Shown piece by piece: positions 2,746 to 46,306 of a DNA stretch of 55,728 bases. Numbering within the stretch: the first letter of the stretch is position 1; every line of letters starts with the position of its first letter. The notes below the pieces were generated by a model, which saw only the letters and a list, made by a program, of their open reading frames with translations, ran no database searches and was not told the origin of the DNA. The stretch spans positions 1 through 55,728 of the IMG/VR virus record IMGVR_UViG_3300036861_000270. One strand, written 5' to 3'. This stretch comes from a virus (taxonomy: Duplodnaviria; Caudoviricetes). The position numbers and the translations under genes are program-made.

Positions 2746-2972
2746 TCAAACTCGATGAGTTGCTCGAGGACGTTGAAGAAGTCCGCCGACTGACGATCCA
2801 GCCGGGCGACATCCTCGTCTTCCGGTTCAAGCACCGCCTGCGCGTAGACACCGCTAATGAGATTGGCGAACACCTCAAGGCCAAGCTCGGCGAGGACGTG
2901 AAGATCCTGATCCTCGACCAGGGCACTGCGATCGACATCCTGGAGAAGACCGACGGTGCCTCGCCTCCTTGA
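2742..2972 (+). CDS. hypothetical protein
   Basis: ATGA overlap, GGAGG RBS. Confidence 0.65.
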   Translation: MIKLDELLEDVEEVRRLTIQPGDILVFRFKHRLRVDTANEIGEHLKAKLGEDVKILILDQGTAIDILEKTDGASPP

Positions 2973-4410
2973 CCGGCTCGCGGATCGTTACAGCCTGCGC
3001 CAAGGCTTCTGGGAGGGGATGGCCTCCGGTGCCGCCGTCTACATGGGCAACTACGGCGACCCCGGCAAAGAGAAGGCCGTCACCAACCTGGTCGGGATGG
3101 CCAGGGACGCCTACCAGTCCAACGGGGCCGTGTTCGCGGTCATCCTGATCCGCTTGGCGTTGTTCTCTGAGGCCCGGTTCGTGTTCCAGAGCCTGGTCGA
3201 CAAGCACACCTACGGCAGCCAGGACCTCAAGATCCTGGAGGAGCCGTGGCCGAACTGCACCACCGGCGAGCTGCTGGCGCGGATGGAGCAGGACCTGTCG
3301 CTTGCGGGGAACGCCTACATCTGGAAGGCCGACGACAACCGCCTCGTCAGGTTGCCGCCGGATGAGGTCACGATCATCTCCCGGGAGATCCAGGGGCCGA
3401 CGGGGCACTACCGCGAGATCGTCGGCTACGACTGGGACCCCACCCCCGTCCAGAACGTCGCACCGGGCGAGTCGAACCGTTCCCCCCAGGCGCAGACGTT
3501 CACCGTGGAGGAGATCGCGCACTGGTCGCCGTATCCGGACCCGAGGGCGAACTTCCGTGGCATGTCGTGGTTGACGCCGGTGTTGCGGGACACGCAGGCC
3601 GACACGGCGATGACCAGCTACAAGATCGCGTACCTGGAGAACATGGCGGCACCCAACCTTCTGCTGAAGTATCAGCAGAAGCTCCGCCCGGACACGGTGG
3701 ACTCGATCGGCCAGCGGATGCACGCCAAGTTCGGCGGGTCGAACGCCTTCAAGACGTTCGTGCTCGACCAGGGCGCCGACGCCACGGTGCTGAACAACTC
3801 GCTGGATTCGATGGCGTTCGCGGAGACGCAGGAGGCCGGCGCGAACCGGATCTGTTCTGCGGGTGGGGTCGACCCGATCCTGATCGGCCTGCTGACGCTG
3901 GGTCGGGCTGCGGTGACCTACGAGCAGGCGATGCGTAGGCTCGGGGATGTCACCCTGCGGCACATGTGGCGGACCGGGTGCGCGGCGCTGCAAAAGCTCG
4001 TCCCCGGCGTCCCCCCAGCGGGGGTGCGGTTGTGGTACGACACCTCGGACATTGCGGCGCTCCGCGCTTCGGAGACTGAGCGGGGGCAGACCAGCCAGGT
4101 GCAGGCCGCCGCGCTGCTCACCGTCGTGCAGGCCGGGTACACGCGCGAGTCGGCGGTCGCGTTCCTGTCGTCGGGGGACGTGAGTCAGCTGGTCCCGGAG
4201 CCGCAGGCCCCACCGCCGGGAGTGTCGGGTCGGGAGACCACGTCGGAGAAGATCACCCCGCCGGCGGCCGCCAAGCCGATCACCGATGGGAACCCGGGCG
4301 GTGAGCCTCCACGGCCTAGCCAGAAGGTCGGACCGCCGACGGGGAACGGGAAGGGTCCGACCCCCAAGCAGATGCGGCCGATGCCACCCGCGTTACTCCG
4401 TCGGCCCTAA
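2956..4410 (+). CDS. portal protein (HK97 family)
   Basis: 'L..PWPN.T..ELL......LSLAGNAYI', 'RGMSWL', position after TerL; Pro-rich C-terminal tail. Confidence 0.92.
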   Translation: MPRLLDRLADRYSLRQGFWEGMASGAAVYMGNYGDPGKEKAVTNLVGMARDAYQSNGAVFAVILIRLALFSEARFVFQSLVDKHTYGSQDLKILEEPWPNCTTGELLARMEQDLSLAGNAYIWKADDNRLVRLPPDEVTIISREIQGPTGHYREIVGYDWDPTPVQNVAPGESNRSPQAQTFTVEEIAHWSPYPDPRANFRGMSWLTPVLRDTQADTAMTSYKIAYLENMAAPNLLLKYQQKLRPDTVDSIGQRMHAKFGGSNAFKTFVLDQGADATVLNNSLDSMAFAETQEAGANRICSAGGVDPILIGLLTLGRAAVTYEQAMRRLGDVTLRHMWRTGCAALQKLVPGVPPAGVRLWYDTSDIAALRASETERGQTSQVQAAALLTVVQAGYTRESAVAFLSSGDVSQLVPEPQAPPPGVSGRETTSEKITPPAAAKPITDGNPGGEPPRPSQKVGPPTGNGKGPTPKQMRPMPPALLRRP

Positions 4411-4975: not shown

Positions 4976-4994
4976 ATCGTTCCCTTCTGGGGAT

Positions 4995-5474
4995 CTACTG
5001 GTGGCGTTCTAGATACTCGGCAAGCAGCCGAAGACGCTGCGGGTTGTCGTTGACCCAGCCGAGGATGAGGTTGCAGTCCTTGCAGAGAACTCCTCGAACG
5101 GCGTTGGTCTTGTGGTCATGGTCGATTGCCATACGAGGGGTGCGTCGTCCACACACGTCACAGCCGGCACCGTTGCGTAGCTGATCGTGGGCCTGTACGC
5201 CCTCCTTTCCATACAGCCGGCGGACTATTTGCTGCTTCCGGGCAGCCTTGGCGTGTGACAGCTGATTCCAGGTGGACACATATGCAGCCCAGCATCGCTT
5301 GCAGCGGCCTCCCCGACCACGAAAGCCCTTCTGCAGTTTTGGGAACTCATCCCACGACTTGAACTCGCCGCAGGTCGTGCAGTGCCGCCCGACATCGGTT
5401 GCCGCATCTCGCATCTCGGCCAGCGTCATCCCGTTGGCGCCGCGACGGGCGTCCGGCTTCCTCCTAGTAGTCAT
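4995..5474 (-). CDS. endonuclease VII-like homing endonuclease
   Basis: CxxC zinc motifs and 'CDVCG...IDHDH.T..VRGVLC..CN..LG'; apparently leaderless, TGaTACAAT 5 nt before ATG. Confidence 0.88.
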   Translation of the reverse strand: MTTRRKPDARRGANGMTLAEMRDAATDVGRHCTTCGEFKSWDEFPKLQKGFRGRGGRCKRCWAAYVSTWNQLSHAKAARKQQIVRRLYGKEGVQAHDQLRNGAGCDVCGRRTPRMAIDHDHKTNAVRGVLCKDCNLILGWVNDNPQRLRLLAEYLERHQ

Positions 5475-5527
5475 GCGGCATTGTATCAGCTTTTGCTGCT
5501 GGATGTAAGGCGGGTGGAGGTGACCCC

Positions 5528-6643
5528 GTGGCGTTGGCTCACGAAAAGGTCGGGCACACAGAGCAAGGGCTCTGGCATCACAAAGGGATGCAGCTGCCAG
5601 CCTTCATACAAAGAATCGCCAACGACCTGATCCACGAACGGGGCATGCCGGAGTCGGAGGCGATCGCCACCGCGATCTCCCAGTGCAAGCGGTGGGCCGC
5701 CGGCGGCGAGAACGTCAAGCCAGAGACCCGCGCGAAGGCTGCCGCGGCGATCGCCGAATGGGAAGCGCTGAAAGCCAAGAGCAAAGCAGGATCAGGATCG
5801 CACGGGAGGGCGGACACGCCGATGCCGTACACCAGAAGCTTTCCGTTGGAGGACATCTCCATCGCCAGGGACGGGAGCGGCAGAGTCGTGGACGCCTACG
5901 CCGCCGTGTTCAACACCCCCGCCAAGGTCAGAGACCAGGACGGCACCTACGAGGAAACCATCGACCCGACCGCGTTCAACCGCACCCTGGAACACCGCCG
6001 CCGCGCCAAGGGTGGCGCGTTCCCGGTGCTGTTCAACCACGGCATGACCCTGTTCGGCACCCCCTCTGAGCGGTACGCCGTCCCGATCGGCGTGTCGGAA
6101 GAGGTTCGCGTGGACGGCAACGGCCTGTTCACCCGTTCCCGGTTCCACCGCACCCAGGCCGCCGACGAGATCCTCGAGGCGATCCGAGACGGCTCCATCA
6201 CCGGCTACAGCTTCCGCGGCGACTTCCTCCGCTCCGACCCGGTCGCCCCTCGCGGCGGATTCCGTCCCGACCACGCCGGCCGGCTCCAGACCGTCCGCCG
6301 GACGGAACTGTCGCTCGACGAGTACGGCCCGGGGACGTTCCCGGTCTACAAAGGCGCAGAGATCGTCGGGGTCCGGGCCGAGCAGGCCGCACTCATGCTC
6401 AGCGCGCTGGCCCCCGGCGAGTTCGACAGGCTCGCCACCATGTTCCGGTCCGGCACTCCACTGGACTCGCCACCTGGCACTCCAGCAGATCCGCCGGCCG
6501 ACGACACCCCCGAACAAGGATCGGGGCCCGTCACCGAGGACCCGTCGCCACTGCGGCACTCCGTTCGGCCACCACATCTGGAACTCCAGGCCCAGCGGGC
6601 CAAGTTCCTGATCAAGCACGGAGGAGGTCACATCGGTGCCTGA
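5528..6643 (+). CDS. prohead protease (HK97 family) with N-terminal extra domain
   Basis: 'YAAVFN', 'LFNHG', 'GSITGYSFRG', 'FPVYKGA'; ~98 aa N-terminal extension. Confidence 0.85.
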   Translation: MALAHEKVGHTEQGLWHHKGMQLPAFIQRIANDLIHERGMPESEAIATAISQCKRWAAGGENVKPETRAKAAAAIAEWEALKAKSKAGSGSHGRADTPMPYTRSFPLEDISIARDGSGRVVDAYAAVFNTPAKVRDQDGTYEETIDPTAFNRTLEHRRRAKGGAFPVLFNHGMTLFGTPSERYAVPIGVSEEVRVDGNGLFTRSRFHRTQAADEILEAIRDGSITGYSFRGDFLRSDPVAPRGGFRPDHAGRLQTVRRTELSLDEYGPGTFPVYKGAEIVGVRAEQAALMLSALAPGEFDRLATMFRSGTPLDSPPGTPADPPADDTPEQGSGPVTEDPSPLRHSVRPPHLELQAQRAKFLIKHGGGHIGA

Positions 6644-8225
6644 CATGCGCACCCCCCCGGTCATCGGCGTCCGCGCCGACGGGCGCCCCATCTTCCTGAT
6701 CGCCGGCGGCGACGGAACCGGCGAGCCCACCCAGACCCAGGACCAGCAGCCGCAGACCACGCAGGGCCAGAACATGTACCGCACCCTGCAGGAGATCGAC
6801 GGGCGGCAGGCCGCGATCCGCACGGAGCTGCAGACCATCGACGTGCTCCCCGAACCGACCGACGAGGACGTCAACTGGCAGGGCACCCTCATCCAGGAGT
6901 ACGACCAGCTTGAGGACCGCGCCCGGCCGCTCCGCCGCCGCATGGCCGACATCGACCGGGTCCTCCGCGCCCGCCAGGACCCCGACAACCGCGAGGACGG
7001 CGCCCCCCGCTCAGGCGGCAACGGTGGCGGTCGGCAGGCTCCCGACGTGTACGTCCGTTCGGGCCGCGACCCGTTCGAGGAGCTCGACAAAGTCCGCCGT
7101 GGCCTCGTCGGCTCCAGTGATCTCCGGGTCCGCGCACAGCTGGCGATCGAGACCGACGCCAAGCGGTACGCGCTCGCCGACGCCTCCTACGCCGAGACCG
7201 CGACCCGCCGGGCCGAGTCAAGCCCCCGGATCGCCAAGCACATCCTGCTCACCGGTTCCCCGGAGTACCGGGACGCGTTCGCCGAGTATCTCCGCGACCC
7301 GGAGAACCTGAGCCGCGAACGTTCCATGACCCTGACCGCCGCCTCCGGCGGCTACCTCCTGCCATATGTCCTAGATCCGACGATTGTCCTGACTAACAAC
7401 GCTTCGGCCAATCCGTTCCGACGGATCAGCCGGAACGAGCAGACCACCTCCAACGCATGGCAGGGCGTCTCCTCGGCCGGCGTGACCGCCGCGTGGATCA
7501 CAGAGACCACCACCGCCGCCGACATGTCCCCCACCATCGGCCAGATCCAGATCACCCCCACCAAGGCCGCCGCCTGGGTGTTCGGCTCCTACGAGGCCCT
7601 TGACGACACCAACTTCGGGGAGCAGCTCCCCGGCCTGCTCGCCGACGCCCGCGACCGGCTCGAGTCCGCCGCGTTCGCAACCGGGTCGGGCACCAACCAG
7701 CCACTCGGCGTGGTCGCCGCGCTCGGCACCGGCTCCCGTGTCGCGCCCACCGCCACCGGCACCGCCTTCAACGGCACCGCCTCCATCCCCGACGTCTACA
7801 ACCTCCAGGCCGCCCTTCCACCCCGGTTCCGCAACAGCCGCAACGTCGGCTGGATCGCCAACATCATCGCCATCAACAAGGTCCGCGCACTCGACCAGTA
7901 CGGCGGCAGCGCGTTCTGGGCGAACTTCGGGTCGGACACCCCCGAGCAGCTGCTCGGCAAGTCGATCTACGAGGCGTCCGACATGAACGCCACCATGACC
8001 GGCGCCTCCGGCGCGACCGGGACCGGGTCGGTCACCCTGCTGTTCGGCGACTGGCAGCAGTTCATCGTGGTCGACCGAGTTGGGGTTAGTATGCTGTACG
8101 AGCCTTTGATCAAGGGTGCGAGCAATGCCCAACTTCCTACTGGTCAGGCCGGTTGGTACATGTTTTGGCGAACTGGGAGTTCTGTCAGTACTACGGCAGC
8201 TTTCCGGTATCTGACGATCTCGTAG
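6636..8225 (+). CDS. major capsid protein (HK97 fold, N-terminal delta domain)
   Basis: Coiled-coil N-terminus, 'GGYLLP', 'G.G..QPLG', 'LLGKSI', 'LFGDW..F.VVDR.G'. Confidence 0.93.
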   Translation: MPDMRTPPVIGVRADGRPIFLIAGGDGTGEPTQTQDQQPQTTQGQNMYRTLQEIDGRQAAIRTELQTIDVLPEPTDEDVNWQGTLIQEYDQLEDRARPLRRRMADIDRVLRARQDPDNREDGAPRSGGNGGGRQAPDVYVRSGRDPFEELDKVRRGLVGSSDLRVRAQLAIETDAKRYALADASYAETATRRAESSPRIAKHILLTGSPEYRDAFAEYLRDPENLSRERSMTLTAASGGYLLPYVLDPTIVLTNNASANPFRRISRNEQTTSNAWQGVSSAGVTAAWITETTTAADMSPTIGQIQITPTKAAAWVFGSYEALDDTNFGEQLPGLLADARDRLESAAFATGSGTNQPLGVVAALGTGSRVAPTATGTAFNGTASIPDVYNLQAALPPRFRNSRNVGWIANIIAINKVRALDQYGGSAFWANFGSDTPEQLLGKSIYEASDMNATMTGASGATGTGSVTLLFGDWQQFIVVDRVGVSMLYEPLIKGASNAQLPTGQAGWYMFWRTGSSVSTTAAFRYLTIS

Positions 8226-8253
8226 TTCGTCCGGTTCAATCCCTGTCGGACCT

Positions 8254-8331
8254 CTATGTGATAATGGTGAGGCCGGGAGAGTCACCTCCCGGCCTCGGGC
8301 CACCACCCTGACAAGGAGGGCAACGGCCATG
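8254..8331 (+). promoter_or_regulatory. HNH-leader variant: -10 box plus two hairpins
   Basis: GATAAT; GAGGCCGGGAG/CTCCCGGCCTC stem; GGCC..CCCT/AGGG..GGCC stem overlapping the RBS. Confidence 0.6.
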
Positions 8332-9051
8332 AAGGAGCGTACCTGTTCGGTCTCCTGGTGCGACCGGAAGCACCACGCGAACGGTCTCTGCCGTACCCAC
8401 AACGAACGGCGGAGGAAAGGACTCGACCTCGACACTCCGTTCCGCCAGTACGAACACGGCGAGCGACTCTGCAAGGTCGAGGGATGCGGGCGTCCTCGGA
8501 CGCCCGCACGAGACCCCGACGCGAAGACATGGACATCCGGATCAGCTGGCTACTGCCCGATGCATCTGACGCGTGTCGCGCGAAACGGCTCTGCAGGGGA
8601 CGCCGCTCCCCTGAGAAAGCCAAAGGCGCGGACTGCCGGCCTCCCTCGGCTGGAGCGGGCACCAAATGGTTCTCCGCAGTGGAACAAACCCGAATACAAA
8701 CGCGAGTATCGGCTGCAACTCGACTACGGCATGTCCCATGACGACCTTTTGGCGATGCTTACAGCGCAGGAGAACCTGTGTGCGATCTGCGGACGCGCCC
8801 TAGCTCGGGAAGCGGACCCCCGGAAGAAGCGTGAGTTCGCCATCGACCACGACGCGGTGACGGGCAAGGTCAGAGGGCTTCTCTGCCATGGGTGCAACAA
8901 GGGGATCGGGTTCTTCAAAGACGATCCTTGTCTGCTCGCCAGGGCGATCGTCTACCTAGCAACCACCTCGGGTGATCCCTGCCTTCGCGGCTATATGGGG
9001 CAACCGAGGCCTGTCGCATGGGAAACGTTAGTCCAGGCGATGCGTCGCTAA
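8329..9051 (+). CDS. endonuclease VII-like homing endonuclease
   Basis: Two 'C...C.R......LC..H' repeats; 'QENLCAICG...IDHD..TGKVRGLLCHGCN.GIG.FKDD'. Confidence 0.9.
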   Translation: MKERTCSVSWCDRKHHANGLCRTHNERRRKGLDLDTPFRQYEHGERLCKVEGCGRPRTPARDPDAKTWTSGSAGYCPMHLTRVARNGSAGDAAPLRKPKARTAGLPRLERAPNGSPQWNKPEYKREYRLQLDYGMSHDDLLAMLTAQENLCAICGRALAREADPRKKREFAIDHDAVTGKVRGLLCHGCNKGIGFFKDDPCLLARAIVYLATTSGDPCLRGYMGQPRPVAWETLVQAMRR

Positions 9052-9143
9052 CGCCTTAGCTTCAACCCCACCTATCCCAACAACGGCCGTCGGGCCGGCC
9101 CGGTCTCCCATGTCCGGGTCGGCCCGACTACATGGGAGGCCCT

Positions 9144-9719
9144 ATGCATCCACTGACCGTCGCTCGTGCCGCCATCCAGGAGCATGCCGCGCTCCAGAAG
9201 GAGGCGGAGCTCGCCAGCCTGCTCGCCGTCCTCGCCGAACTTGAGCCGAAAGTGATCGTGGAGATCGGCTGCGATGCCGGCGGGACGTTGTGGGCGTGGC
9301 GGCAGCTTGGGCCGCGTCGGTTGCTTGGGGTGGAGCTGCCGCGGGCGGGGTTCCATTCCGGGAAGCCGTTGGAGCGTCACGGCGCCGAGGTGATCATCGG
9401 CGACAGCCACCAGCAGGACACCCACGACCAGCTTGTGAAGCTGCTGGACGGGGAGCAGGTGGACTTCCTGTTCATCGACGCGGACCACACCTACGACGGT
9501 GTGAAACGCGATTTCGAGCTGTACTCGCCGCTGGTCCGTCCGGGTGGGGTGATCGCCCTGCACGACATCTGCAACCACCCGAGGATGCCGGAGGTGCAGG
9601 TGGGTCGGTTCTGGCTGCGGCTCCGTGAGGGGCAGGAGACGGAGGAGTTCATCACCGACCCGCCGACGTGGGGTGGCATCGGCGCGCTGTGCTACCAGCC
9701 CGCGGAGGTGCCGGCCTGA
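9144..9719 (+). CDS. class I SAM-dependent methyltransferase (Methyltransf_24-like)
   Basis: 'IVEIGCDAGGT', 'DFLFIDADHTY', 'VRPGGVIALHD'. Confidence 0.88.
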   Translation: MHPLTVARAAIQEHAALQKEAELASLLAVLAELEPKVIVEIGCDAGGTLWAWRQLGPRRLLGVELPRAGFHSGKPLERHGAEVIIGDSHQQDTHDQLVKLLDGEQVDFLFIDADHTYDGVKRDFELYSPLVRPGGVIALHDICNHPRMPEVQVGRFWLRLREGQETEEFITDPPTWGGIGALCYQPAEVPA

Positions 9720-10762: not shown

Positions 10763-11045
10763 GCCGGACGGGACCGTGGTCTGGCAGCCCGGCGCCCAGT
10801 TCGACCAGGACGACCCGGCCCTGGACGATCTGCCGCCCGGGCATGTCCGTCCCGTCGTCGTGGAGATCGACGAGCCGCCGGCAGCGGCAGCGGCAGCGGC
10901 TGCGTCAGGCCCGACCGAGGTGCCGGCCTCGGAGCTCGAGCGTCTCCGGGGCCAGGCTGAGCGGCTCGGCGTCAAGGTGGATGGTCGCTGGTCAGCAAGC
11001 AGGCTTCAGCAGGAGATTGCCCAACACGAAGGGAGCAGTACATGA
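10719..11045 (+). CDS. small protein with C-terminal helix-extension-helix-like motif
   Basis: GAGGAGG RBS before GTG; 'LR.QAERLGVKVDGRWS..RL..EI'. Confidence 0.65.
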   Translation: MARRVKMELTQPVSEPDGTVVWQPGAQFDQDDPALDDLPPGHVRPVVVEIDEPPAAAAAAAASGPTEVPASELERLRGQAERLGVKVDGRWSASRLQQEIAQHEGSST

Positions 11046-11470
11046 GCAAGGGAAAGCGGATCATCGTCGCGCTGGCCACGGCCGCCGCGCTCACCGTCGG
11101 TGCCGCTGGCACCGCGCTGGCCGGCTCGCCCCACTTCGTCGACGACCAGCTCACCGCCACCCGCACCGGTGACACCCTCACCGTCAGCGGGAAGGAAGCC
11201 GGGCTGGGTTCTGAGGAGAGCGTGCATGTCGTGGTGGAGGCGAAGGCCGCCTGCCTCAACCCCGGTGAGAACTTCCCGCAGGCCGCCAACAAGGAATCCT
11301 TCTCCGCTGCGGGTGACTTCCCCGTGACCAACGGCAAGGCGTACTTCGAGGTGACGGTGGTGTTCACGTTCCAGCCGAAGTGCGTCCCGCCGATGCGGTT
11401 GGTGATCGGCGACGTGACGGTCACCGATACCAGCAACGGGATCTCCACCACGATCCCCGGCGAGTTCTGA
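11042..11470 (+). CDS. secreted protein
   Basis: Signal peptide: basic N-terminus, hydrophobic core, ALA cleavage site; two Cys. Confidence 0.75.
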   Translation: MSKGKRIIVALATAAALTVGAAGTALAGSPHFVDDQLTATRTGDTLTVSGKEAGLGSEESVHVVVEAKAACLNPGENFPQAANKESFSAAGDFPVTNGKAYFEVTVVFTFQPKCVPPMRLVIGDVTVTDTSNGISTTIPGEF

Positions 11471-11479
11471 AAAGGCCCG

Positions 11480-11567
11480 CTGACCTGCTAAAATAGCAAG
11501 AGAAGCGGCCCGGCGGCGCTTGCGACGCCCCGGGCCATGGCCAACACCTTCAGAGAGGTGCGGCATG
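11480..11567 (+). promoter_or_regulatory. HNH-leader motif copy
   Basis: CTGACCTG-TAAAAT-AAGCGGCCCGG.../CCGGGCC-ATGGCCAACACCT.../AGGTG-ATG. Confidence 0.7.
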
Positions 11568-12359
11568 CTCGATGTTAACCGCGCTGGCTACGCAGCCGCG
11601 CACCGGCTCATCGCTGCTGGGCTGTGGATCGTTGACGCTGAGGCAGGCACGGTCACGGGCAGCAGATATGGCAAGCAGCTAGGCCGCACCAAGCCGGTGG
11701 GTTACTACGTCAGAATCTACGTCAGAGAGAACGGGGCCAGGGTCGGCAACATCTCTGCCCACCGGCTGATCTGGGAGCACGTCAATGGCCCGATCCCTGA
11801 TGGCTTAGAGATCAACCATCGCAACGCCATCAAGAATGACAATCGGCTAGCGAACCTGGAACTTGTGACCCCAGGCGATAACAACAGGCATGCGTTCGCC
11901 CTTGGATTAATGACTCTCCAAGGCGAGCACAACAACAATGCCAAGCTCACCAAACAGGATATCCACGATATCCGCCAGGCCCTGGCTGATGGCGAGATGG
12001 GCGTGACTCTTGCTCATCGATATGGCGTGACCAAGGGGGCCATCAGCCTGATTCGTTCCGGGAGGCTCTGGTCGCATCTCGACGACCCTGCCAGGCACAT
12101 TCTAGACAAAGGAGCACATATGCCCAAGGGTTCTGCGTGGCAGTGGATCGTCGACGTCACCGACCAGTCCGGTACGCATCCGGAGAAGATCATCGGCTCC
12201 TGCAACGGCACGTTCGCCAGCGCCACCTACTACAAGGACGACGGGTACGGGAACCTGATCGTCCCGGACGGCAGCTTCATGGCCGACCCGTCCAGGGTGG
12301 CGTGTGAGGAGCAGGCGGTCGAGGCGTGGGCGATCGCCAACTACCCCAACCGCACCTAG
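11565..12359 (+). CDS. HNH endonuclease (HNH_3-like plus HTH), read in frame into a downstream 79-aa ORF
   Basis: 'AHRLIWE...GPIP.GLEINH.N..K.DNRLANLELVT...N..H', 'NAKLT..DI..IR'; internal AAAGGAG RBS and ATG at 12120. Confidence 0.85.
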   Translation: MLDVNRAGYAAAHRLIAAGLWIVDAEAGTVTGSRYGKQLGRTKPVGYYVRIYVRENGARVGNISAHRLIWEHVNGPIPDGLEINHRNAIKNDNRLANLELVTPGDNNRHAFALGLMTLQGEHNNNAKLTKQDIHDIRQALADGEMGVTLAHRYGVTKGAISLIRSGRLWSHLDDPARHILDKGAHMPKGSAWQWIVDVTDQSGTHPEKIIGSCNGTFASATYYKDDGYGNLIVPDGSFMADPSRVACEEQAVEAWAIANYPNRT

Positions 12360-14214: not shown

Positions 14215-15891
14215 ATGCCACCTCGCCGGGGATATCTCAAGCCCCCAGCCCGGATCATCCGCCGCGGGTCGCGGATCCTCCGCCCGCTCGTCACCGGCGC
14301 AGTCTCCCCGATCACCAAGGTCGGCACCGACGGCACCACCGCCGCGACCGTGCAGGACACCACCCCAACCACCGCATGGCCCTCGGGGATCACCGACGGG
14401 GACCTGGTCGTCCTCGAGGTCACCTACGGGTCCGGCGCCACCCCGACCACCATCTCGCAGGCCAGCGGCGCGACGATGACGCTGGCAAGCGACCTGTCCG
14501 ACACGTCCATCCGGACCGCCACCTACACCCGCTTCTTCGTCACCGGCGACACCGCCCCCACGTTCACCCTGTCCACCGCCCGCTCATGGGCGACCAAGAC
14601 AACAGCGTTCCGTGGGGTCGACACTGTTCACCGGTTCGGCCCGAACGACAACGACTTTCAGCAGACCGCCCAGGCGTCGTCCACCAGCTACGCGTCCGGG
14701 TCGCTCACCCCCGACGAGGACCTGGCGATGGCGGTCCTGGTCTGGGGCGGGAAGATCGCCGCAGGCGGGACGCAGACGATCACGGTCGCGTCCGGGTGGA
14801 CCGACACCGGCGCGATCAACCAGTGCAACATCGCGGCGACCACCAACGTCTGGTGCGACATCCAGTACCAGGCGCTCGGCACGGCGGCCGCGACCAGCGA
14901 GTCAGTGACGATCGGGACCGCCGCGGTCGGACAGGGCACGATCCTCGCGCTGAACCCGGCCCCGGCCGGTGGCGCTCTATCTCGCACCGCCGCTGATACC
15001 GCCTCGGCCACGGACACTGCCACCAGATCAGTTGCCGAGGCTCGTACTGCAGCCGATACCGCCAGCGCCTCGGACAGCGCGCCACGTATCGCCAGCTTCG
15101 CCCGTTCCGCCTCGGATACCGCCAGCGCGACCGACACGGCGGTCGGGGTCGGCGGTGGGAATAGCCGGACCGCCTCGGATGCTGCCTCAGCAACTGACAC
15201 AGCATCGCGGACGCTAGGGCTGGCCACCCGCACGACTGCGGACACGGCCAGCGCTTTGGACACGGTCACCCGGACCGCACCGAAGACCCGCACGACCGCT
15301 GACACGGCGTCGGCCAGCGACACGGCAACGCGGACGTGGGCGGCAGCCAGGACCGCCACGGAGACGGCAAGCGCCACCGACGCGGGCGCCCGGCTCGTCG
15401 CGTTCGCACGGTCGGCCTCCGATACCGCAACGGCAGCGGACGCCGCCACCCGGACGGCACCGCGCATCCGCACCGCATCCGACACGGCCAGCGCGACGGA
15501 CACGGCGGCTGGGTCGACGTCGGGGAACCTGCAACGCACCGCCACCGACACCACCCAAGCGACCGACACGGCGACACGCTCGGCGATCACCTGGGCACGG
15601 TCGACCGCCGACACCGCCCAGGCGGTTGACGCGGCCACCCGGACCGCACCACGCACCCGAATCGTCAGCGACACCGCCGCAGCCGCCGATGTAGCGGTCG
15701 GAGTCGTCAACCACTCGTTCACCCGCACCGCCGCCGACACCGCCAACGCAGCAGACACGGCATCGGGGACGGTCGTGGCGTTCACCGTCGGCCAGCTCAC
15801 CGCCACCTTGGCCGCCCTGACCACGCTTACCGCTGCCGACGCGCCGACCGCGACCCTGACCGCGACGGCCACACGGGGCGGCCCCACCTAA
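14215..15891 (+). CDS. putative fibre/appendage protein with tandem repeats
   Basis: Globular N-terminal domain then 13 repeats of 20-22 aa, R[TS]xxD[TA]AxAxD. Confidence 0.7.
   Translation: MPPRRGYLKPPARIIRRGSRILRPLVTGAVSPITKVGTDGTTAATVQDTTPTTAWPSGITDGDLVVLEVTYGSGATPTTISQASGATMTLASDLSDTSIRTATYTRFFVTGDTAPTFTLSTARSWATKTTAFRGVDTVHRFGPNDNDFQQTAQASSTSYASGSLTPDEDLAMAVLVWGGKIAAGGTQTITVASGWTDTGAINQCNIAATTNVWCDIQYQALGTAAATSESVTIGTAAVGQGTILALNPAPAGGALSRTAADTASATDTATRSVAEARTAADTASASDSAPRIASFARSASDTASATDTAVGVGGGNSRTASDAASATDTASRTLGLATRTTADTASALDTVTRTAPKTRTTADTASASDTATRTWAAARTATETASATDAGARLVAFARSASDTATAADAATRTAPRIRTASDTASATDTAAGSTSGNLQRTATDTTQATDTATRSAITWARSTADTAQAVDAATRTAPRTRIVSDTAAAADVAVGVVNHSFTRTAADTANAADTASGTVVAFTVGQLTATLAALTTLTAADAPTATLTATATRGGPT
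14980..15770 (+). repeat. 13 degenerate coding tandem repeats of ~60-66 bp
   Basis: RTAADTASATDTAT-like units counted in the translation. Confidence 0.85.
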
Positions 15892-18427: not shown

Positions 18428-19579
18428 ATGCCGTACGCGTCAGGATTGGGCGCCAGTCTCGGGTTCGGCGTCGAGGGCACTCCAGGCACCGAGGCCGTGC
18501 CGACCGCCTGGTACGAGTTCCTGTCAGAGTCGCTGGCGCTCACCCCGACCTACCTCGACTCGGCCGGGCTGAAGCAGGGGCAGGCATTCAAGCGGGGCGC
18601 CCGCACCGCGATCAGCCGCTACGACGTCAACGGCGACCTCGTCTTCGAGTTCGCCGACCGTGGCGTGTCAGCGACCGGCGGGAAGGGCATGGGGTTTCTG
18701 CTCCACTACGCCCTCGGGTCACCGGCGACCGGGGCGCAGCAGCTCGGCGCCACCTCCGCATGGCAGCAGGTCCACCAGCCCGGCACGACCGCCGGCCTGT
18801 CACTCACCGCAGAGGTCGGCCGCCCGCAGATCGCAAGCCCCTACACGTCCATCCGGTTCGGGTACTCGGGGATCAAGTTCTCCGGGTGGGAGTTCACCTG
18901 CTCCGACGGCGCGCTCGCGCAGCTGAAGCTCACCGCCGACGGGATGAACTGCACCACCTCCGGCTCCGTCACCCAGCCGGTGTACGCGGCGGCCGCGTAC
19001 CAGGCGAGCATCTTCTCGTTCGTGGACGCCTACGCGGGTGGGTTCCTGATCGGCACGGGCGCCCAGGCCGGCACCGGGTCGCTGCCGGGTACTGGTGGGA
19101 CCGGGACAGGGACCGGGAACTACACCACCCTGACCGGCACCGCCTCGGTCAGCCACGTGGTGAAGGGGTTCACCCTCACCGCCGCCCGGCCGGTCGCCTC
19201 CGAGCGGTACGGGTTCGGCAACGCCGGCATAAAGCGCGAACAGCTTGAGAACGGCATTCCCACCCTAACGGGTACACTAGACGCGGAGTTCACCAACCGC
19301 ACCGAGTTCTACGACCTGTTCTCCACCAACGCGACCCGGTCGTTGCAGCTCGACTTCGCCCACGGCATCAACGGGTCCGGCGCCGACGGCGCCGCCGGCA
19401 GCACCGGCACTGGCGCGTACCGCCTGTCCTTTGTACTGCCGTTCGTGAAGTTCAAGACCGACCCGCTGGCGGTCGGCGGTCCGGACCTGATCCCCGAGTC
19501 CATCGGATTCGAATGTTACGACGACGGTTCGGGCGTTCCGCTCCAAGTGCGGCTTGTGTCCCAGGACCAAGCTTTTTAG
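18428..19579 (+). CDS. major tail (tube) protein
   Basis: 'SGLGASLGFG.E.T.GT', position before the tail assembly chaperone. Confidence 0.82.
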   Translation: MPYASGLGASLGFGVEGTPGTEAVPTAWYEFLSESLALTPTYLDSAGLKQGQAFKRGARTAISRYDVNGDLVFEFADRGVSATGGKGMGFLLHYALGSPATGAQQLGATSAWQQVHQPGTTAGLSLTAEVGRPQIASPYTSIRFGYSGIKFSGWEFTCSDGALAQLKLTADGMNCTTSGSVTQPVYAAAAYQASIFSFVDAYAGGFLIGTGAQAGTGSLPGTGGTGTGTGNYTTLTGTASVSHVVKGFTLTAARPVASERYGFGNAGIKREQLENGIPTLTGTLDAEFTNRTEFYDLFSTNATRSLQLDFAHGINGSGADGAAGSTGTGAYRLSFVLPFVKFKTDPLAVGGPDLIPESIGFECYDDGSGVPLQVRLVSQDQAF

Positions 19580-19584
19580 TCCTT

Positions 19585-19672
19585 CTGACCTGGTAAAATA
19601 GCCGCAGTAAGTGGCCCCGCGCGGGTGGTGCCGCCGGGGCCGTGGCCGACACGAACGGAGCGTGCCGACATG
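19585..19672 (+). promoter_or_regulatory. HNH-leader motif copy
   Basis: CTGACCTG-TAAAAT-AAGTGGCCCCG.../CGGGGCC-GTGGCCGACACG.../CGTGCCGAC-ATG. Confidence 0.72.
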
Positions 19673-20344
19673 GCAGAGCGTACATGCTCTCTCTGCGGGC
19701 AAGTTTTGCCGCTCTCCTGCTTCTATGAGCGGTCGCCTGGTGTCCCTCGCCAGGAATGCAAGGCGTGTCACAGCGAGCGTGCGGCCCGTTGGCGGGAGCG
19801 GAGCCAAGCGAAGATCAAGCTTGCGAGGCAGCGCTACCAGGAAACGCATCGCGATGAGATCCGCGCGCGGAGCAAACGGTACCGTGAGGAATACCCAGAG
19901 CAGATCCGCGCGAAGAAGCACGCTGGCCACATCCGGGACCGCGAGCGGAACCTCGCCCGCAGCAAGCGCTGGCAAGAGGAGAACCCAGAGCGGGCAGCCG
20001 CGATCAAGCGCCGTTACTACGAGGCGAATACGGTTGCCGCCAAGGCTCGCACCAAAGCATGGATCAAGGCGCACCCGGCCGAGAAGGCTGAGCGGCAGCG
20101 GCGGGATCGCGCCCGGAAGCTGGCTACGTCCGTTGTTCGCATCACTCCCGACCTGCTGGCCGCGAAGCTGGCGTACTGGGGCTGGCGGTGCTGGTTGTGT
20201 GGTGGCGAGCCGACAACCTGGGACCATGTGAAGCCCTCGACCAAGGGCGGCCCCCACATCCTGGCCAACCTGCGGCCTGCCTGCCAGCCGTGCAACACGC
20301 GCAAGCTAAACCGCTGGCCGTTCCCGACCCACCGGAGATGCTGA
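19670..20344 (+). CDS. HNH endonuclease
   Basis: N-terminal CxxC..CxxC, basic helical repeats, 'CWLCG....WDHVKP..KGG.H..ANLRPAC..CN.RK'. Confidence 0.9.
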   Translation: MAERTCSLCGQVLPLSCFYERSPGVPRQECKACHSERAARWRERSQAKIKLARQRYQETHRDEIRARSKRYREEYPEQIRAKKHAGHIRDRERNLARSKRWQEENPERAAAIKRRYYEANTVAAKARTKAWIKAHPAEKAERQRRDRARKLATSVVRITPDLLAAKLAYWGWRCWLCGGEPTTWDHVKPSTKGGPHILANLRPACQPCNTRKLNRWPFPTHRRC

Positions 20345-20541
20345 TGGCAGAACTTGAGGTGTGGAAGTCCACGGCGATTGTCCCGGTGAGCATTCTCGGG
20401 CAGGACGATGAAGGTCGCACGCTGGTGCGTTGCCCTGAATGCGGCGACACCGCCACGGTCATGGAAGACGGAGAGATCCGCTGCCCGTTCGGGGAGACGA
20501 TCCAGGCAGCACTCTCTACCGCGCTGGAGGGACTGTTCTGA
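20344..20541 (+). CDS. small Cys-containing hypothetical protein
   Basis: TGATG coupling on both sides; CPEC. Confidence 0.55.
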   Translation: MAELEVWKSTAIVPVSILGQDDEGRTLVRCPECGDTATVMEDGEIRCPFGETIQAALSTALEGLF

Positions 20542-25095: not shown

Positions 25096-25779
25096 GTGGC
25101 AACCAAGTACCCCGCCGCGCTCGACGACGACACCACCATCCCCGACGACCTTGTCGTGGATGGGGTGACCACCGGGCACGACACGCACCACCCGAACGCG
25201 CACGGCGCGATCCGCGCGCTTGAGGCCAAACTCGGCATCGGTAGTTCGACCGCCGCTGCCGCGACGACCGGGTGGGTGCCGGTCAAGCAGGGCGACGGGA
25301 CCACCGCGTGGGCGGCGGTACCGGCCGGGACGCCCGCCTCCACGGTCACGGCGATGGACTACACCACTGGCTCGGTGGTGGGGACCGGCACCAACTACGC
25401 GCGGGAGGACCACAAACACAAGTCGGATCGGCCGATCCTGCCGTTCCTGTGGACCGTCGACACGGTCACCAGCCCGCTGGACCTGCAATACAACCTGGTG
25501 GTGCCGTTCAACGCCGACCTGTACAGCTACACGTGCTGGCTGAAGAACGTCGCCACCAGCGGCGCCAACACCAAGGTCGACCTGAAGGTCGGCGGCACCA
25601 CCCGCCTGACGACCCAGCCGGAGATCGTGGTCGGCCAGACCGTCAACACGATCGCGGCGGTGTTCTCCTCCACCACGCTGACGGGTGGGGTGAGCGTCAT
25701 CACCACCCACGTCACGCAGGGGTCGTCTGGTGGGCCGTTGCAGATCCTGCTGCTCGTGCAGTTGACGGTGCCGGCGTGA
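25096..25779 (+). CDS. minor tail protein
   Basis: 'T.YP.ALD', 'I.ALEAKLG', 'YAREDH.H' motifs of phage fibre proteins. Confidence 0.7.
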   Translation: MATKYPAALDDDTTIPDDLVVDGVTTGHDTHHPNAHGAIRALEAKLGIGSSTAAAATTGWVPVKQGDGTTAWAAVPAGTPASTVTAMDYTTGSVVGTGTNYAREDHKHKSDRPILPFLWTVDTVTSPLDLQYNLVVPFNADLYSYTCWLKNVATSGANTKVDLKVGGTTRLTTQPEIVVGQTVNTIAAVFSSTTLTGGVSVITTHVTQGSSGGPLQILLLVQLTVPA

Positions 25780-28118
25780 GCCTCAACTCTCTGTTGGTCC
25801 CCAATGTCGGCTGCCTGTTCGGGGTGTGGCCGTCCACCTCGTGTAATGCGGCGACCAGTCTCGCGACCCGGGTCCGCGACCATGAGTCGCTGATCAACCG
25901 GACCTCGGCCACCAACGGTGTCCTCAACATCGTTCACGCCTACCACGATTGGAATGACTACGCGACCACGTTCCCGACCGCCGACGAGCAGACACTGGCT
26001 AGCGAGGGCCGGCTGCTGCTGATCCACTGGACCCCGCGGATCTACGGGACCTCGACGCAGTACAGCTGGGCCAATATCGCTGCGGGGGCCTACGACAACT
26101 CGATCGTGATCCCCCAGGCACGGCTGATGCGTGACTGGGGCACCAGTTTCTTCCTGGCGTTCCACAGCGAGATGAACTCCGGCTCGACGGCGCAGGGTGG
26201 CACCTACGGCACCGACGCTGACTACGCCGCCGCAGCGCAGCACCTCCACGACGTGTTCGTCGCCCAGGGCGCCACCAACGTGGTCTGGGTGTTCAACCCG
26301 TCCGGGTACACCACCACGGTCCCGACCCGGATAAACGCGCTGTACCCGGGGGACGCCTACGTCGACTGGATCAGTTTCGACCCGTACGGGAGCGCCTCGA
26401 CCAGCGAGGACCTCGACTACGTCCTGGGCACCAAGTACCCGATGATCAACTGGGCCACCGTCACCAAGAGCGGCAGCCACACCAAGCCGATCATGCTGGC
26501 CGAGTGGGGGAAGACCGAGACCGGCGGAGCCTATCCGAACACCAAGCAAGGCTTCTTCGACCAGGTCCGCACGACCCTTCAGGCCAGCTACCCGCAGATC
26601 AAGGCGATCGTCTACTTCGACGGCGTCTCCGGGGTCAGCCAGTGCCTGAACACCTCCACCAATGCCCTGAAGGGGTACCAGGATCTGGCTAAGGCGGACT
26701 ACTTCAACCCGGACCTGAGCCCGACCGGCCCACCGATCAGCACGGGCTCGTTCCGGTCCAGCGTCGCCGCCACGTTCTCCAACACCAAGTCCAAAGCGAT
26801 CACGATCCCTGTCGATGTGCAGGCCGGCGACGGGATGCTGCTGTGGCACACCTGCACCCGCGCGGAGCTCCGGCAGGCCGCTGAGGGCACCAACGCCACC
26901 AACGTCACCGTTGCCAACTCCGGCGCCAAGGGTTCCAACCCGCTGGATGGGGTGTCGGCGACCCCACCGACCTATGACACGACCCAGAAGCACTCGGGCG
27001 CCTCCTCGTGGCTTGCGGGTCTGGCCGCGCAGACAACCCGTGCTGGCTGGTGGGAGGCCAGCTTCGGGACGCAGGTCTCCGGGGTGCCGTACTGGGGGGA
27101 GAAGTACTTCCGGATCCCGTCGGTGCCACCAGCCGCGATCCGGCTGTTCCAGCAGGCCGGCGTCGCCGGCTCCCCAGCGTTCCAGTGGGGCCTGGCAATC
27201 GACGTGACCACCGGGAAGCTGGTCATCCGCGACGGTGGGGGCACCAACCGGGCAACGTCGACTGCCGCGCCCGCGGTGAACACCCAGCATCGTGTCGAAT
27301 GGCAGTGCGACTGGAACGGGTCGACCACCACCGTCATCGCGCGGCTGTTCCTCGGCACCAACGTGGACGGCACCACCCCGGATGAGACGCTGACCTCCAC
27401 GCCGTTCACGCAGGCCGCCGCGGGGGGCCGCTACTACTTCGGTGCGCTGTCCTCCACCGCGCAGACATGGGCGCCATGGGTGGACGACTTCCGGCTTTCA
27501 AAGAACGGCTGGATCGGCCCGCAAGGGACCTCCCCGGCCCTCACCGCCCCGACCGGATGGACGTTCGTTGACTCCCGGCAGATCACCGACGGGCCCGTCG
27601 AGCTCATCAGCCGGCTGTACCGCCGGACCGCGCAGGCCGGTGACCCTGGCTCCGCGATCACGCTGACCACCGACGTGCTCGCGCATGGGTCGATCGACCT
27701 GGTCGCCTACTCCGGCGTTGACCAGCTTGCCGTGGTTGATGTGTCGGCGACCCCATCCACGAAGACGACTGACTCAACCACGGTCGTCACTCCTACGACG
27801 CCGACCACCACCGGCACTGCCGACATCATCGTCTCGGCGGCGTTCACCCGCGACAACCCGGGCGGCCTCACCAGCTCCTGGACGCTACCCGGCGGGGAAG
27901 TGCAACGTGCGGTGGCGTTCCCCTCCGGCACCGCTGACGGCAGGGTCGCCGGAATCGTCACCGACGATGCCGTCACCCATGGCGTCGGAACGTACGGGGC
28001 GAAAACGTTCACCTCCAACGCCACCAGTTACTTGGGCATTGGATGGACGATCGCACTCCTGTCGACGGCGGCGGTATCCAGCGGCCAGTCGTTCGGAATG
28101 ATGCAGACGCACAACTAG
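25776..28118 (+). CDS. tail protein with GH26-like glycoside hydrolase domain
   Basis: 'SEMN' (acid/base), 'VVWVFNP', 'YPGDAYVDWISFDPY', 'KPIMLAEWG' (nucleophile); GTGA overlap. Confidence 0.8.
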   Translation: MSLNSLLVPNVGCLFGVWPSTSCNAATSLATRVRDHESLINRTSATNGVLNIVHAYHDWNDYATTFPTADEQTLASEGRLLLIHWTPRIYGTSTQYSWANIAAGAYDNSIVIPQARLMRDWGTSFFLAFHSEMNSGSTAQGGTYGTDADYAAAAQHLHDVFVAQGATNVVWVFNPSGYTTTVPTRINALYPGDAYVDWISFDPYGSASTSEDLDYVLGTKYPMINWATVTKSGSHTKPIMLAEWGKTETGGAYPNTKQGFFDQVRTTLQASYPQIKAIVYFDGVSGVSQCLNTSTNALKGYQDLAKADYFNPDLSPTGPPISTGSFRSSVAATFSNTKSKAITIPVDVQAGDGMLLWHTCTRAELRQAAEGTNATNVTVANSGAKGSNPLDGVSATPPTYDTTQKHSGASSWLAGLAAQTTRAGWWEASFGTQVSGVPYWGEKYFRIPSVPPAAIRLFQQAGVAGSPAFQWGLAIDVTTGKLVIRDGGGTNRATSTAAPAVNTQHRVEWQCDWNGSTTTVIARLFLGTNVDGTTPDETLTSTPFTQAAAGGRYYFGALSSTAQTWAPWVDDFRLSKNGWIGPQGTSPALTAPTGWTFVDSRQITDGPVELISRLYRRTAQAGDPGSAITLTTDVLAHGSIDLVAYSGVDQLAVVDVSATPSTKTTDSTTVVTPTTPTTTGTADIIVSAAFTRDNPGGLTSSWTLPGGEVQRAVAFPSGTADGRVAGIVTDDAVTHGVGTYGAKTFTSNATSYLGIGWTIALLSTAAVSSGQSFGMMQTHN

Positions 28119-28654
28119 GAGAGGAGACGTTTACGGGCGCGCCTCTCACGAGCGAGTTGTCGATCGCAGGCACGGCAGCAACGTTCGCCACGGCGAGTGA
28201 TTCGCGTATTGCGCTCGTCGAATGGATGGCCGCGTAGGCAGTGCGTCATCCGCGCCCGTTGCGCACTCAATGAGCCACTACGCAGGACGTTCTCTTGCTG
28301 CGTGACCGGCTCTAGGTGAGCGGGGTTCACGCAGGATGTGACCCCGCAGAGATGGTCGATCACAAGTCCGATAGGAATCGGACCGACCATCCGCTCATAG
28401 GCGTAGCGGTGGACGAGCATGCGATGTCCTCGCTCTGGATAGCACATGCCATAGCCAGCACGGTTACGGTTGCCAGTCCAAAGCCAGCATGTCTCGGTCT
28501 TCTCAACCTTGGCCCAGAAGCGCTGTTCAGGGGTGGGCAGCTTCGTTGTCCCGAGTCGCTTCCATCGGCCGTAGTGCATCACGCACAGGCCGTGCCCGCA
28601 GTGACGGGTGACTGGCTGGTTGCAGTCATCGACTGAACAGATACGCTCTGGCAC
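28115..28654 (-). CDS. HNH endonuclease (HNH_3-like)
   Basis: 'RFWAKVEKT..CWLWTG...GYG', 'IDHLC....CVNP.HLEPVT..EN', 'THC.RGHPF'. Confidence 0.9.
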   Translation of the reverse strand: MPERICSVDDCNQPVTRHCGHGLCVMHYGRWKRLGTTKLPTPEQRFWAKVEKTETCWLWTGNRNRAGYGMCYPERGHRMLVHRYAYERMVGPIPIGLVIDHLCGVTSCVNPAHLEPVTQQENVLRSGSLSAQRARMTHCLRGHPFDERNTRITRRGERCCRACDRQLARERRARKRLLS

Positions 28655-28743
28655 GTCGGTCCCTCCCGGGGGATCGGCCAGCCCCGGGCGGTCCACATCC
28701 GCGCCGGGGCACTTCATTGCCTGATTCTACTGTGCAGGTGAGA
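28652..28743 (-). promoter_or_regulatory. HNH-leader motif copy (minus strand)
   Basis: CTCACCTG-TAGAAT-AAGTGCCCCGG.../CCGGGGC-TGGCCGATCCC.../GGGACCGAC-GTG. Confidence 0.7.
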
Positions 28744-45965: not shown

Positions 45966-46306
45966 CCCGCGCGACCAGTCTCGGCAGTCTCGCCAAGCCG
46001 GTCGGGAATCTCCACCGTCCTCCCGGTGTCAACCTGCCACTTGGCAGGCCCGCCCCGAACTTCGGCGCTGGGCTGGCATGCCAAGATCCACACTGGGACC
46101 CGAATTGGTGGTTCGCGCCAGACCGGGATCTTGGCCTGTCCTATGACGATGCGGAGCATGCCAAGAAGCTGTGCAAGTCCCGCTGTCCGGCACTGCGCGA
46201 GTGTTTGGCGTGGGCGCTGGCCACAGGGGAGCCGAACGGGATTTGGGGCGGCATGTTGCCCCAGGAGCGGCACAAGGTCCGCCGGAACCTTCGGAGGCCC
46301 CCGTGA
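45962..46306 (+). CDS. whiB: WhiB-family transcription factor
   Basis: 'AC......F...AKKLC...CP....CL.WAL...E..GIWGG'. Confidence 0.88.
   Translation: MTRATSLGSLAKPVGNLHRPPGVNLPLGRPAPNFGAGLACQDPHWDPNWWFAPDRDLGLSYDDAEHAKKLCKSRCPALRECLAWALATGEPNGIWGGMLPQERHKVRRNLRRPP

Follow-up and report, generated by a model that had tools for sequence, protein, structure and literature searches.

The window analysed here, that is, the whole stretch of 55,728 bp in IMG/VR record IMGVR_UViG_3300036861_000270, is a complete virus record (Duplodnaviria; Caudoviricetes) of ~67% G+C. In its structural module lie a portal gene (2956..4410), a prohead protease gene (5528..6643; PF04586) and, directly downstream of the latter, an HK97-type major capsid protein gene on the plus strand (6636..8225; 529 codons and a stop; PF05065, E = 3e-39). 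Behind the capsid gene stands a free-standing Endonuclease_7-type gene like those of T4 endonuclease VII (endo VII) and F-CphI (8329..9051, plus strand; PF02945, E = 1.3e-18), and a methyltransferase gene (9132..9719, plus strand; PF13578) follows it. Our subject is the 3' end of the capsid gene, whose last 49 codons differ at their silent sites from those of all relatives, and the nuclease gene inserted beside it.

By its product, the capsid gene is ordinary to its very end: the PF05065 match covers the profile in full length (residues 238-527 against profile positions 1-279 of 280) and so reaches residue 527 of 529. By its codons, the gene falls into two unequal parts. G+C content at third codon positions (GC3) is 0.887 over the gene, yet 23 of the 49 codons of the tail (codons 481-529; 8076..8222, plus strand) end in A or T (19 T, 4 A), against 37 of the remaining 480 (Fisher p = 1.9e-11), and no other stretch of the gene is as rich in A and T as the tail. 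A first-pass annotation, made from the window alone, had counted about 23 such codons among the last 49 and none among the preceding 32, in a protein that still read as a normal capsid C-terminus. Its count and its view of the protein hold, and its contrast was understated, since the run of consecutive G/C-ending codons directly before codon 481 is really 62 long. A one-change-point likelihood fit places the break after codon 480, exactly at nt 8076, and when the third-position labels were shuffled 20,000 times, no 49-codon window held more than 18 A/T-ending codons. Among 7,889 windows of 49 codons in the long, high-GC3 open reading frames (ORFs) of the genome, the capsid tail is the second most extreme; the first, with 33 of 49, lies in ORF 25272..28118. 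Two parts of the protein are conserved best across its family, the C-terminal stretch being one of them, and the amino acid identity of the tail to nearer relatives is 0.79-0.90.

We compared the window with 85 related loci (labelled L below), 35 from IMG/VR and 51 from soil metagenome contigs, some of them duplicated. The two nearest capsid relatives, L002 and L003, both lack the nuclease gene, and the complete 53.7-kb record of L002, which we call G001, is the closest complete relative of the window; the two genomes are mosaics of each other, with adjacent segments 71% to 96% identical. In blastn comparisons with L002, L003 and G001, homology ends at position 8221 and restarts at 9071, which delimits an 849-bp insertion on the plus strand (8222..9070) that holds the capsid stop, a spacer and the nuclease gene, and has 5 bp as its counterpart in G001. 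The methyltransferase gene forms the downstream flank of the insertion. In nuclease-less relatives the methyltransferase gene comes directly after the capsid gene, or a family-2 glycosyltransferase gene stands there and the methyltransferase gene follows. GenBank phages gave no nucleotide match to positions 6636-9131, and their best capsid relatives (phages of Gordonia, Mycobacterium and Rhodococcus) share at most 41% amino acid identity, too distant for work on silent sites. The prokaryote contigs of GTDB, at one genome per species, yielded no capsid relative and therefore no host or prophage context.

The spacer within the insertion carries, after the capsid stop, a perfect 11-bp G+C-rich inverted repeat with a 6-nt loop (8269..8296, plus strand), a single copy in the window. 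It resembles a terminator without the T run, and a scan for T-tract terminators misses it; the fold of 8215-8335 has a minimum free energy of -52.6 kcal/mol (z = -2.6). Between this hairpin and the nuclease ORF lies a Shine-Dalgarno-like AAGGAGG (8313-8319). As a separate observation, copies of the stretch 8264-8345 (hairpin and ribosome-binding stretch together) that differ by 6 changes and 4 gaps lie in other surroundings, with unlike sequence on both sides: one in a 1,928-nt contig at depth 86.5 from sequencing run X2, and one in a 639-nt contig from run X1.

Run X1, the probable source of the record, contains the form seen in the window at depth 85.5. It also contains a 745-nt contig at depth 11.6, about one-seventh of that of the window form, which matches 7985-8066 and 9074-9300 and has 168 other letters in between; these are unalignable, meaning less than 85% alike. 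Alignment is thus lost at most 10 nt from the GC3 change point and regained at the downstream boundary of the insertion. Because this contig joins 8066 to 9074, a nuclease-less variant with an unalignable tail co-occurs with the window form in the probable source sample, and both alleles, with and without the nuclease, meet in one sample. The contig may belong to the L002/L003 lineage, in which case it is no independent comparison. Run X2 covers parts of the stretch only (17 of 30 bins) and is uninformative on absence.

The silent sites show the same break. We scored the proportions of synonymous (pS) and nonsynonymous (pN) differences: over codons 263-480, the window and L003 differ at pS 0.29 and pN 0.10, and in the tail at pS 0.93 and pN 0.11; against L002 the values are 0.31 and 0.11 before the tail and 0.79 and 0.17 within it. 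High synonymous with low nonsynonymous divergence against nuclease-less relatives is what the first-pass annotation had predicted for the patch. The synonymous sites of the tail are saturated against every relative. At residues identical in the window and L003, Met and Trp aside, the same codon is used at 78% of positions in mid-gene and at 24% in the tail, about the expectation from random codon choice. On the other side of the insertion the picture is reversed: identity to G001 is 0.78-1.00 over the first 675 nt past the insertion (in 45-nt windows), against 0.62-0.78 over the final 135 nt of the capsid gene, and the downstream flank from 9071 is 91.6% identical where the capsid body is 78.7%. 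The divergence is therefore one-sided, and its side is that on which a free-standing nuclease would be expected to make its cut.

The nuclease gene belongs to a well-defined family. Its longest ORF encodes 240 amino acids (163 in the record's own call), PF02945 is matched over residues 128-211 with 67.1 bits (cut-off 23.6), and its matches in the PDB are Hpy99I and T4 endo VII. The zinc ligands expected of the endo VII family (CX2-4C and CX2C), the Asp-His pair, the Arg and the Asn are all present: C151, C154, C186, C189, H174, R182 and N190 are invariant or nearly so in our alignment of homologues (A1), and D173 is there. Homologues P0002-P0012 share 54-83% identity with it; a scan of IMG/VR with the single protein found no homologue, and a scan with alignment A1 found only distant relatives there, at most 32% identical over full length. 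The GC3 of the gene is 0.71, against 0.83-0.89 in its neighbours. Its N-terminus consists of repeated Cys/His modules resembling zinc fingers, encoded in 8329-8700, and these are homologous (blastp E = 9e-10 to 1e-5) to modules in the HNH_3-type genes that occupy the same site in L010, L025, L030, L050, L051, L063 and L078. They match neither the nuclease genes at other sites in the window nor that of L032. One DNA-binding module is found here on two different nuclease domains.

The association of nuclease and recoded tail extends through the family. The 83 loci with a complete tail fall into 60 lineages at 98.5% identity, 59 of them with at least 30 tail codons. A nuclease gene stands directly after the capsid stop in 20 lineages (7 Endonuclease_7-type, 13 HNH_3-type) and is absent from that position in 24; the other 15 are undecided, either because the contig stops there or because the ORF that follows has no assignment. 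On a tree built from the capsid bodies, the nuclease was gained or lost at least 8 times, and the site after the capsid stop is an insertion hot spot for two nuclease families. Taking the GC3 drop as the GC3 of codons 263-475 minus that of codons 485-529, we obtained a mean of 0.178 in the 17 scorable nuclease-bearing lineages (all positive, 14 of them at 0.10 or more) and of 0.034 in the 21 scorable nuclease-less ones, 4 of which reach 0.10 (one-sided Mann-Whitney p = 3.3e-5, relatedness ignored). Ten sister contrasts, picked by hand from the tree and pairwise BLAST comparisons, show the larger drop on the nuclease side in 8, the reverse in 1 (L063 versus L042) and a mixed result in 1; the nuclease state of three partners counted as lacking the gene (L006, L021 and L069) is unknown. 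Mean GC3 over the 17 lineages is 0.75 in the nuclease genes, 0.72 in the tails and 0.90 in the capsid bodies, a likeness of nuclease genes and tails that fits a shared history of both. High-GC3 tails occur as well, with 1.00 in L007 and L037, 0.98 in L004 and 0.95-1.00 in several lineages, so that rare codons are no inherent requirement of the capsid C-terminus.

That last result bears directly on the idea that the A/T-ending codons are a signal in DNA or mRNA, whether a promoter for the nuclease gene, a landing zone free of structure or a rare-codon pause at the end of capsid translation. In T4, promoters that lie within the 3' end of the gene ahead do serve some free-standing nuclease genes (PMC2988022; here and below, cited papers stand for excerpts of their text), and the tail is indeed the stretch of the capsid gene richest in A and T. 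A signal would be conserved, however, yet nucleotide variation in the gene is highest in the tails, and several relatives do with tails of GC3 0.95-1.00. A scan of 7800-9300 for sigma-70-like promoters and T-tract terminators, with other promoter types outside its scope, found neither. We regard a signal as a very improbable explanation.

A second case of the same kind lies elsewhere in the structural module, which holds at least five free-standing HNH-type genes (4995..5474, minus strand; 8329..9051; 11520..12359; 19625..20344; 28115..28717, minus strand) with GC3 of 0.69-0.79 against ~0.85-0.9 in their neighbours; three of them are clean insertions when compared with G001. The tail-tube gene (18428..19579, plus strand; PF18906) is directly followed by a 959-bp block on the plus strand (19576..20534) that is absent from G001 and carries the HNH gene 19625..20344 (PF01844). 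The 3' end of the tail-tube gene (19418..19579, plus strand) is synonymously diverged from that of G001: there are 9, 8, 6 and 5 silent differences per 15 codons in the last ~55 codons, and mostly 0-3 per window, with single windows of 4 and 6, in the preceding 200. The window's own A/T-ending tail-tube codons occupy the last 23 codons; over codons 331-360 it is the nuclease-less G001 that has the A/T-ending codons (GC3 0.60 versus 0.87 in the window). Judged by these alignments, the tail-tube 3' end can be taken as an independent replicate of the capsid picture in the same genome. The first of the HNH-type genes, 4995..5474, is a second Endonuclease_7-type gene with an intact DHDH motif (PF02945, E = 1.2e-16) and lies upstream of the prohead protease gene in a region, 4410-5528, that has no counterpart in G001, so that the protease and capsid genes are bracketed by endo VII-type genes at 4995..5474 and 8329..9051.

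We propose that the A/T-ending codons are probably the capsid-side part of a foreign block of ~1 kb, and represent the co-conversion or immunity tract of intronless homing. The block would comprise the last 49 capsid codons, the hairpin spacer and the Endonuclease_7-type gene, from ~8067/8076 to 9070, and we think these limits are likewise more probably right than wrong. In a mixed infection, the nuclease would cut the nuclease-less allele within the conserved 3' end of the capsid gene; the break would be resected and then repaired from the genome carrying the nuclease; and the interval from the cut to the nuclease gene would be copied along with it. Because the capsid C-terminus is under strong protein constraint, only synonymous differences would survive such a transfer, and because the normal codons of the family nearly all end in G or C, a diverged allele would show more A/T-ending codons. 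The imported tail, different at almost every silent site, would then also be cut poorly by its own nuclease. The insertion, the block, the saturated silent sites, the family-wide link with nuclease genes and the second case at the tail-tube gene are all observed; that the enzyme cuts within the capsid tail, which way the transfer ran and that the carrier allele is immune we infer, the last from its near-total silent-site difference (pS 0.79-0.93).

We also considered C-to-T deamination of resected single strands as the cause of the T bias in the tail (19 T to 4 A). Against the consensus of ten high-GC3 tails, the changes number 10 transitions and 8 transversions in the window, and 4 and 10 in L002; these ratios do not support deamination, and we dropped it. 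Preference for A or T at the ends of tail codons is heterogeneous among lineages (chi-square 76.5, 42 degrees of freedom, p = 9e-4; tails of L002-L087, relatedness ignored) and is often unlike that of the body of the same gene: A to T is 4:19 in the tail and 6:3 in the body of the window, and 13:3 and 5:15 in L002.

Close pairs of capsid genes show how sharply the silent divergence is confined to the tail. From body to tail, pS rises from 0.22 to 0.81 between L025, which bears an HNH_3-type gene, and L026, which bears none (tail pN 0.02); from 0.14 to 0.59 between L078 and L007 (0.07); from 0.09 to 0.50 between L051 and L054 (0.07); from 0.19 to 0.59 between L034 and L036 (0.00); from 0.09 to 0.42 between L042 and L063 (0.02); and from 0.03 to 0.34 between L042 and L044 (0.00). 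Pairs in which both tails are nuclease-less and of high GC3 show no such excess, pS going from 0.40 to 0.18 in L021/L058, from 0.37 to 0.30 in L004/L070 and from 0.39 to 0.27 in L013/L017. In the group L042, L044, L048, L063 and L008, codons 476-503 are identical and the last 26 codons differ at many silent sites, several of which carry 3-4 alleles (for example, Gly as GGA, GGC, GGT and GGG, and Arg as CGG, CGA, CGC and AGA) in capsids otherwise 98-100% identical.

Such multi-allelic silent sites are what one would expect if the tails had diversified in place, with A/T-ending codons arising by mutation within a lineage, whether or not it bears a nuclease gene, and selected to evade the nucleases of coinfecting phages. 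The A/T-ending codons 331-360 of the G001 tail-tube gene and the low-GC3 tails of nuclease-less L002, L003, L047 and L042 could be understood in the same way, and silent changes are known to protect a target: a phage gene escaped a homing nuclease once it carried 17 silent mutations near the target site (PMC11620839). Escape of this kind is poorly matched, however, to the abrupt break at 8076 after 62 G/C-ending codons, and to a patch of ~150 nt that is far longer than a recognition site and always reaches the insertion point; the 10 transitions and 8 transversions of the window tail, moreover, look like old saturated divergence and not recent point mutation. As an account of the tail by itself we find it decidedly unlikely, but it may well act together with co-conversion.

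Several of our results weigh against co-conversion by homing. The formal independent-pairs test, with 6 pairs only, gives a median p of 0.25. The first-pass annotation had expected the low-GC3 end to be missing from relatives without the nuclease, and this stands only in part: L002, L003, L047 and L042, four of the 21 nuclease-less lineages and among them the window's two nearest relatives, have low-GC3 tails, in codons that differ from those of the window. These tails can be footprints of lost nucleases, escape alleles or products of recombination independent of nucleases. Conversely, nuclease-bearing L063 has a drop of only 0.03, and the GC3 of nuclease genes and tails is uncorrelated across lineages (rho 0.08). 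No sequence in any searched collection carries the window's tail, the best nucleotide identity being 0.73. With no such donor among them, the transfer of tail and nuclease together is something that we infer. The annotation's central claim, that the nuclease cassette carries a recoded, putatively cleavage-resistant gene end which replaces the target allele in intronless homing, is partly supported: the two form one block against the closest nuclease-less genomes (breaks at 8066 and 9074, 849-bp insertion), the silent divergence is as predicted, and low-GC3 tails go with nuclease genes across the family. The low-GC3 tails of those four lineages, the near-absent drop in L063, the missing donor and the motif of the enzyme, described next, tell against it.

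Further points on the same side come from the nuclease and from other parts of the genome. The motif of the enzyme is AIDHDAVTG, that is, DHDA and not DHDH, with Ala176 at the position of His43 in T4 endo VII, a protein whose H43T mutant is inactive (PMC6083498). Ala176 aligns with the second His of P0008-P0011 and P0013 and with that of the DHNH motif of Hpy99I. The window's enzyme and its four closest homologues, P0003-P0006, all have Ala for the second His (motifs DHDA, GHSA and DHEA), a loss not seen in P0002 and P0007-P0013; members with the endo VII motif keep it in most cases, not in all (PMC6083498). The enzyme of the window may be impaired, make nicks only or act in another way. The late phase of a homing cycle would fit a nuclease in decay beside a fixed tract. 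The capsid gene itself has a second, smaller low-GC3 synonymous patch (7356..7420, plus strand; codons ~241-262, ~10 of them A/T-ending; GC3 0.56-0.69) with no nuclease gene adjacent to it. This patch falls where the capsid domain begins and conservation is highest (amino acid conservation 0.90-0.91); the window and L003 differ there at pS 0.72 and pN 0.04, and L025 and L026 also have a silent excess in the region (pS 0.47 versus 0.22). The gene 11042..11470, before the third insertion, diverges toward its end by mixed silent and replacement changes with no drop in GC3, and is a weaker case than the tail-tube gene. Finally, larger low-GC3 patches lie away from recognised nuclease genes, at codons 19-185 of 25272..28118 (25326-25826) and codons 22-250 of 46026..47672; at their worst point 33 of 49 codons end in A or T, and the 30-codon minimum of GC3 is 0.30.

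Patches of this sort would also fit ordinary mosaic recombination, unrelated to nuclease activity, in which the capsid tail would have been swapped in from a lower-GC relative by homeologous exchange and the nuclease would merely sit in a permissive gap. Recombination at gene ends is frequent in phages. The mosaic relation to G001, with its 71% to 96% identity in adjacent segments, the low-GC3 tails of some nuclease-less relatives and the lack of an identified donor all agree with that account. It does not foresee, however, that low GC3 and silent excess should track nuclease presence over at least 8 gains and losses, that the divergence should be one-sided and always abut the insertion point, that the pattern should repeat at the tail-tube gene, or that near-identical capsids should differ only in the last 26 codons, by the insertion site. 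We consider mosaic recombination of this kind an unlikely explanation. A search for tail shuffling found no pair of sampled lineages whose tails are more than 0.10 more identical than their bodies; a hint, and only a hint, comes from L025, whose nearest tail is that of L035 (both bear HNH_3-type genes) and whose nearest body is that of nuclease-less L026.

The mechanism of intronless homing itself is textbook knowledge, and the systems in which it was worked out allow a close comparison. The cuts of free-standing T4 endonucleases lie hundreds of bp away from the gene of the enzyme, and the interval is co-converted; segD sits between genes 23 and 24, thus adjoining the major capsid gene as the nuclease gene of the window does (PMC2988022). 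The intronless homing of SegF, SegG, SegE and MobE in T4 shares with our case a nuclease gene that stands free between conserved genes in the same orientation, its presence or absence among collinear relatives, and a diverged stretch in the neighbouring gene on one side, as a distant cut with co-conversion of the interval would produce. The T4 enzymes are of the GIY-YIG and Mob-type HNH classes, whereas those here are of the endo VII and HNH_3 types; the T4 evidence comes from crosses, whereas ours is a GC3 trough across many wild genomes of uncultured, high-G+C soil phages known from sequence alone. The target of F-CphI, from cyanophage S-PM2, is psbA next to an intron site and not a capsid gene. 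F-CphI is nonetheless a proven homing nuclease with an endo VII motif, of the "DHHRN" family, and like the window's enzyme it is a free-standing gene with a PF02945-type core, the CX2-4C and CX2C ligands, Asp-His, Arg and Asn (PMC6083498). The window's enzyme and its four closest homologues differ from it in having Ala for the second His, and the window's enzyme also in its other, repeated Cys/His module at the N-terminus.

Exon co-conversion by group I introns, as in T4 td and in plant mitochondrial cox1, likewise leaves a short donor-type silent tract beside the insertion site, and such a tract can outlast the loss of the element as a footprint (PMC2988022, PMC3192709). Footprints of that kind would explain the low-GC3 tails in nuclease-less L002, L003, L047 and L042. 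The window differs in having no intron: its tract occupies the end of the gene upstream, whose stop codon is followed by the element as a gene of its own. In the homing endonuclease gene (HEG) islands described by Barth, Dunham and Seed in 2023, nuclease genes cluster by essential structural genes, capsid genes included, and nuclease domains are shuffled onto shared DNA-binding modules (PMC10448857); both features recall the window, where endo VII-type genes bracket the protease and capsid genes. The cargo of HEG islands, however, has unusually high nucleotide identity (PMC10448857), whereas the edge in the window shows excess silent divergence, and its protease and capsid genes are 71.2% and 78.7% identical to G001 where neighbouring segments reach 91-92%. 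The main text of that paper contains neither "synonymous" nor "divergence" (PMC10448857, main text only). A 2025 study of HNH genes in Skunavirus found core genes by insertion sites to be less identical and suggested homing as the cause (PMC12724721). In a literature search that drew mostly on titles and the starts of abstracts, we found no description of a family-wide GC3 trough with saturated silent change. What is new here is the presence of endo VII-type and HNH_3-type nucleases at a hot spot at the capsid gene's end, in uncultured high-G+C phages.

Some further features of the window deserve mention. The methyltransferase gene behind the capsid locus is followed, in the window (9132-10762) as in relatives, by one or two glycosyltransferase genes, a set that suggests modification of the virion or of a sugar. 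Two of the HNH-type ORFs, those starting at 11520 and 19625, both begin ..PGPWPT..ER.., which suggests a shared leader. At the 5' edge of the HNH gene 19625 there is a 49-nt element (19604-19652) that contains a G+C-rich inverted repeat, and a second copy, 82% identical, lies at 31609-31657. ORF 14215..15891 contains a family of 13 imperfect 40-nt direct repeats (14979-15759) and also has a low-GC3 patch, at codons 248-297.

A broader reading of these data, which we offer tentatively and think possible but doubtful, is that the capsid gene's last ~25-50 codons are a permanent battleground. There a guild of nucleases, with two unrelated catalytic domains on homologous zinc-finger-like modules, would attack, silent sites would be under frequency-dependent selection to differ, and the tails of L002, L003, L042 and L047, together with the tail-tube gene of G001, would be escape alleles; GC3 troughs would then be a general marker. 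If it is true, troughs at the conserved ends of structural genes in high-G+C phages would be a marker, read from sequence only, of past and present targets of homing nucleases. Homing by free-standing nucleases has been demonstrated mainly in crosses of T4-like phages and a few other cultured phages. Here, wild, uncultured soil phages show what appear to be its remains: one hot spot, two nuclease families, at least 8 gains or losses and a one-sided silent tract in an essential gene. If the link between trough and nuclease holds, such troughs could locate nuclease targets and old homing events without experiments, and would account for part of the fine-scale mosaicism seen where structural genes end.

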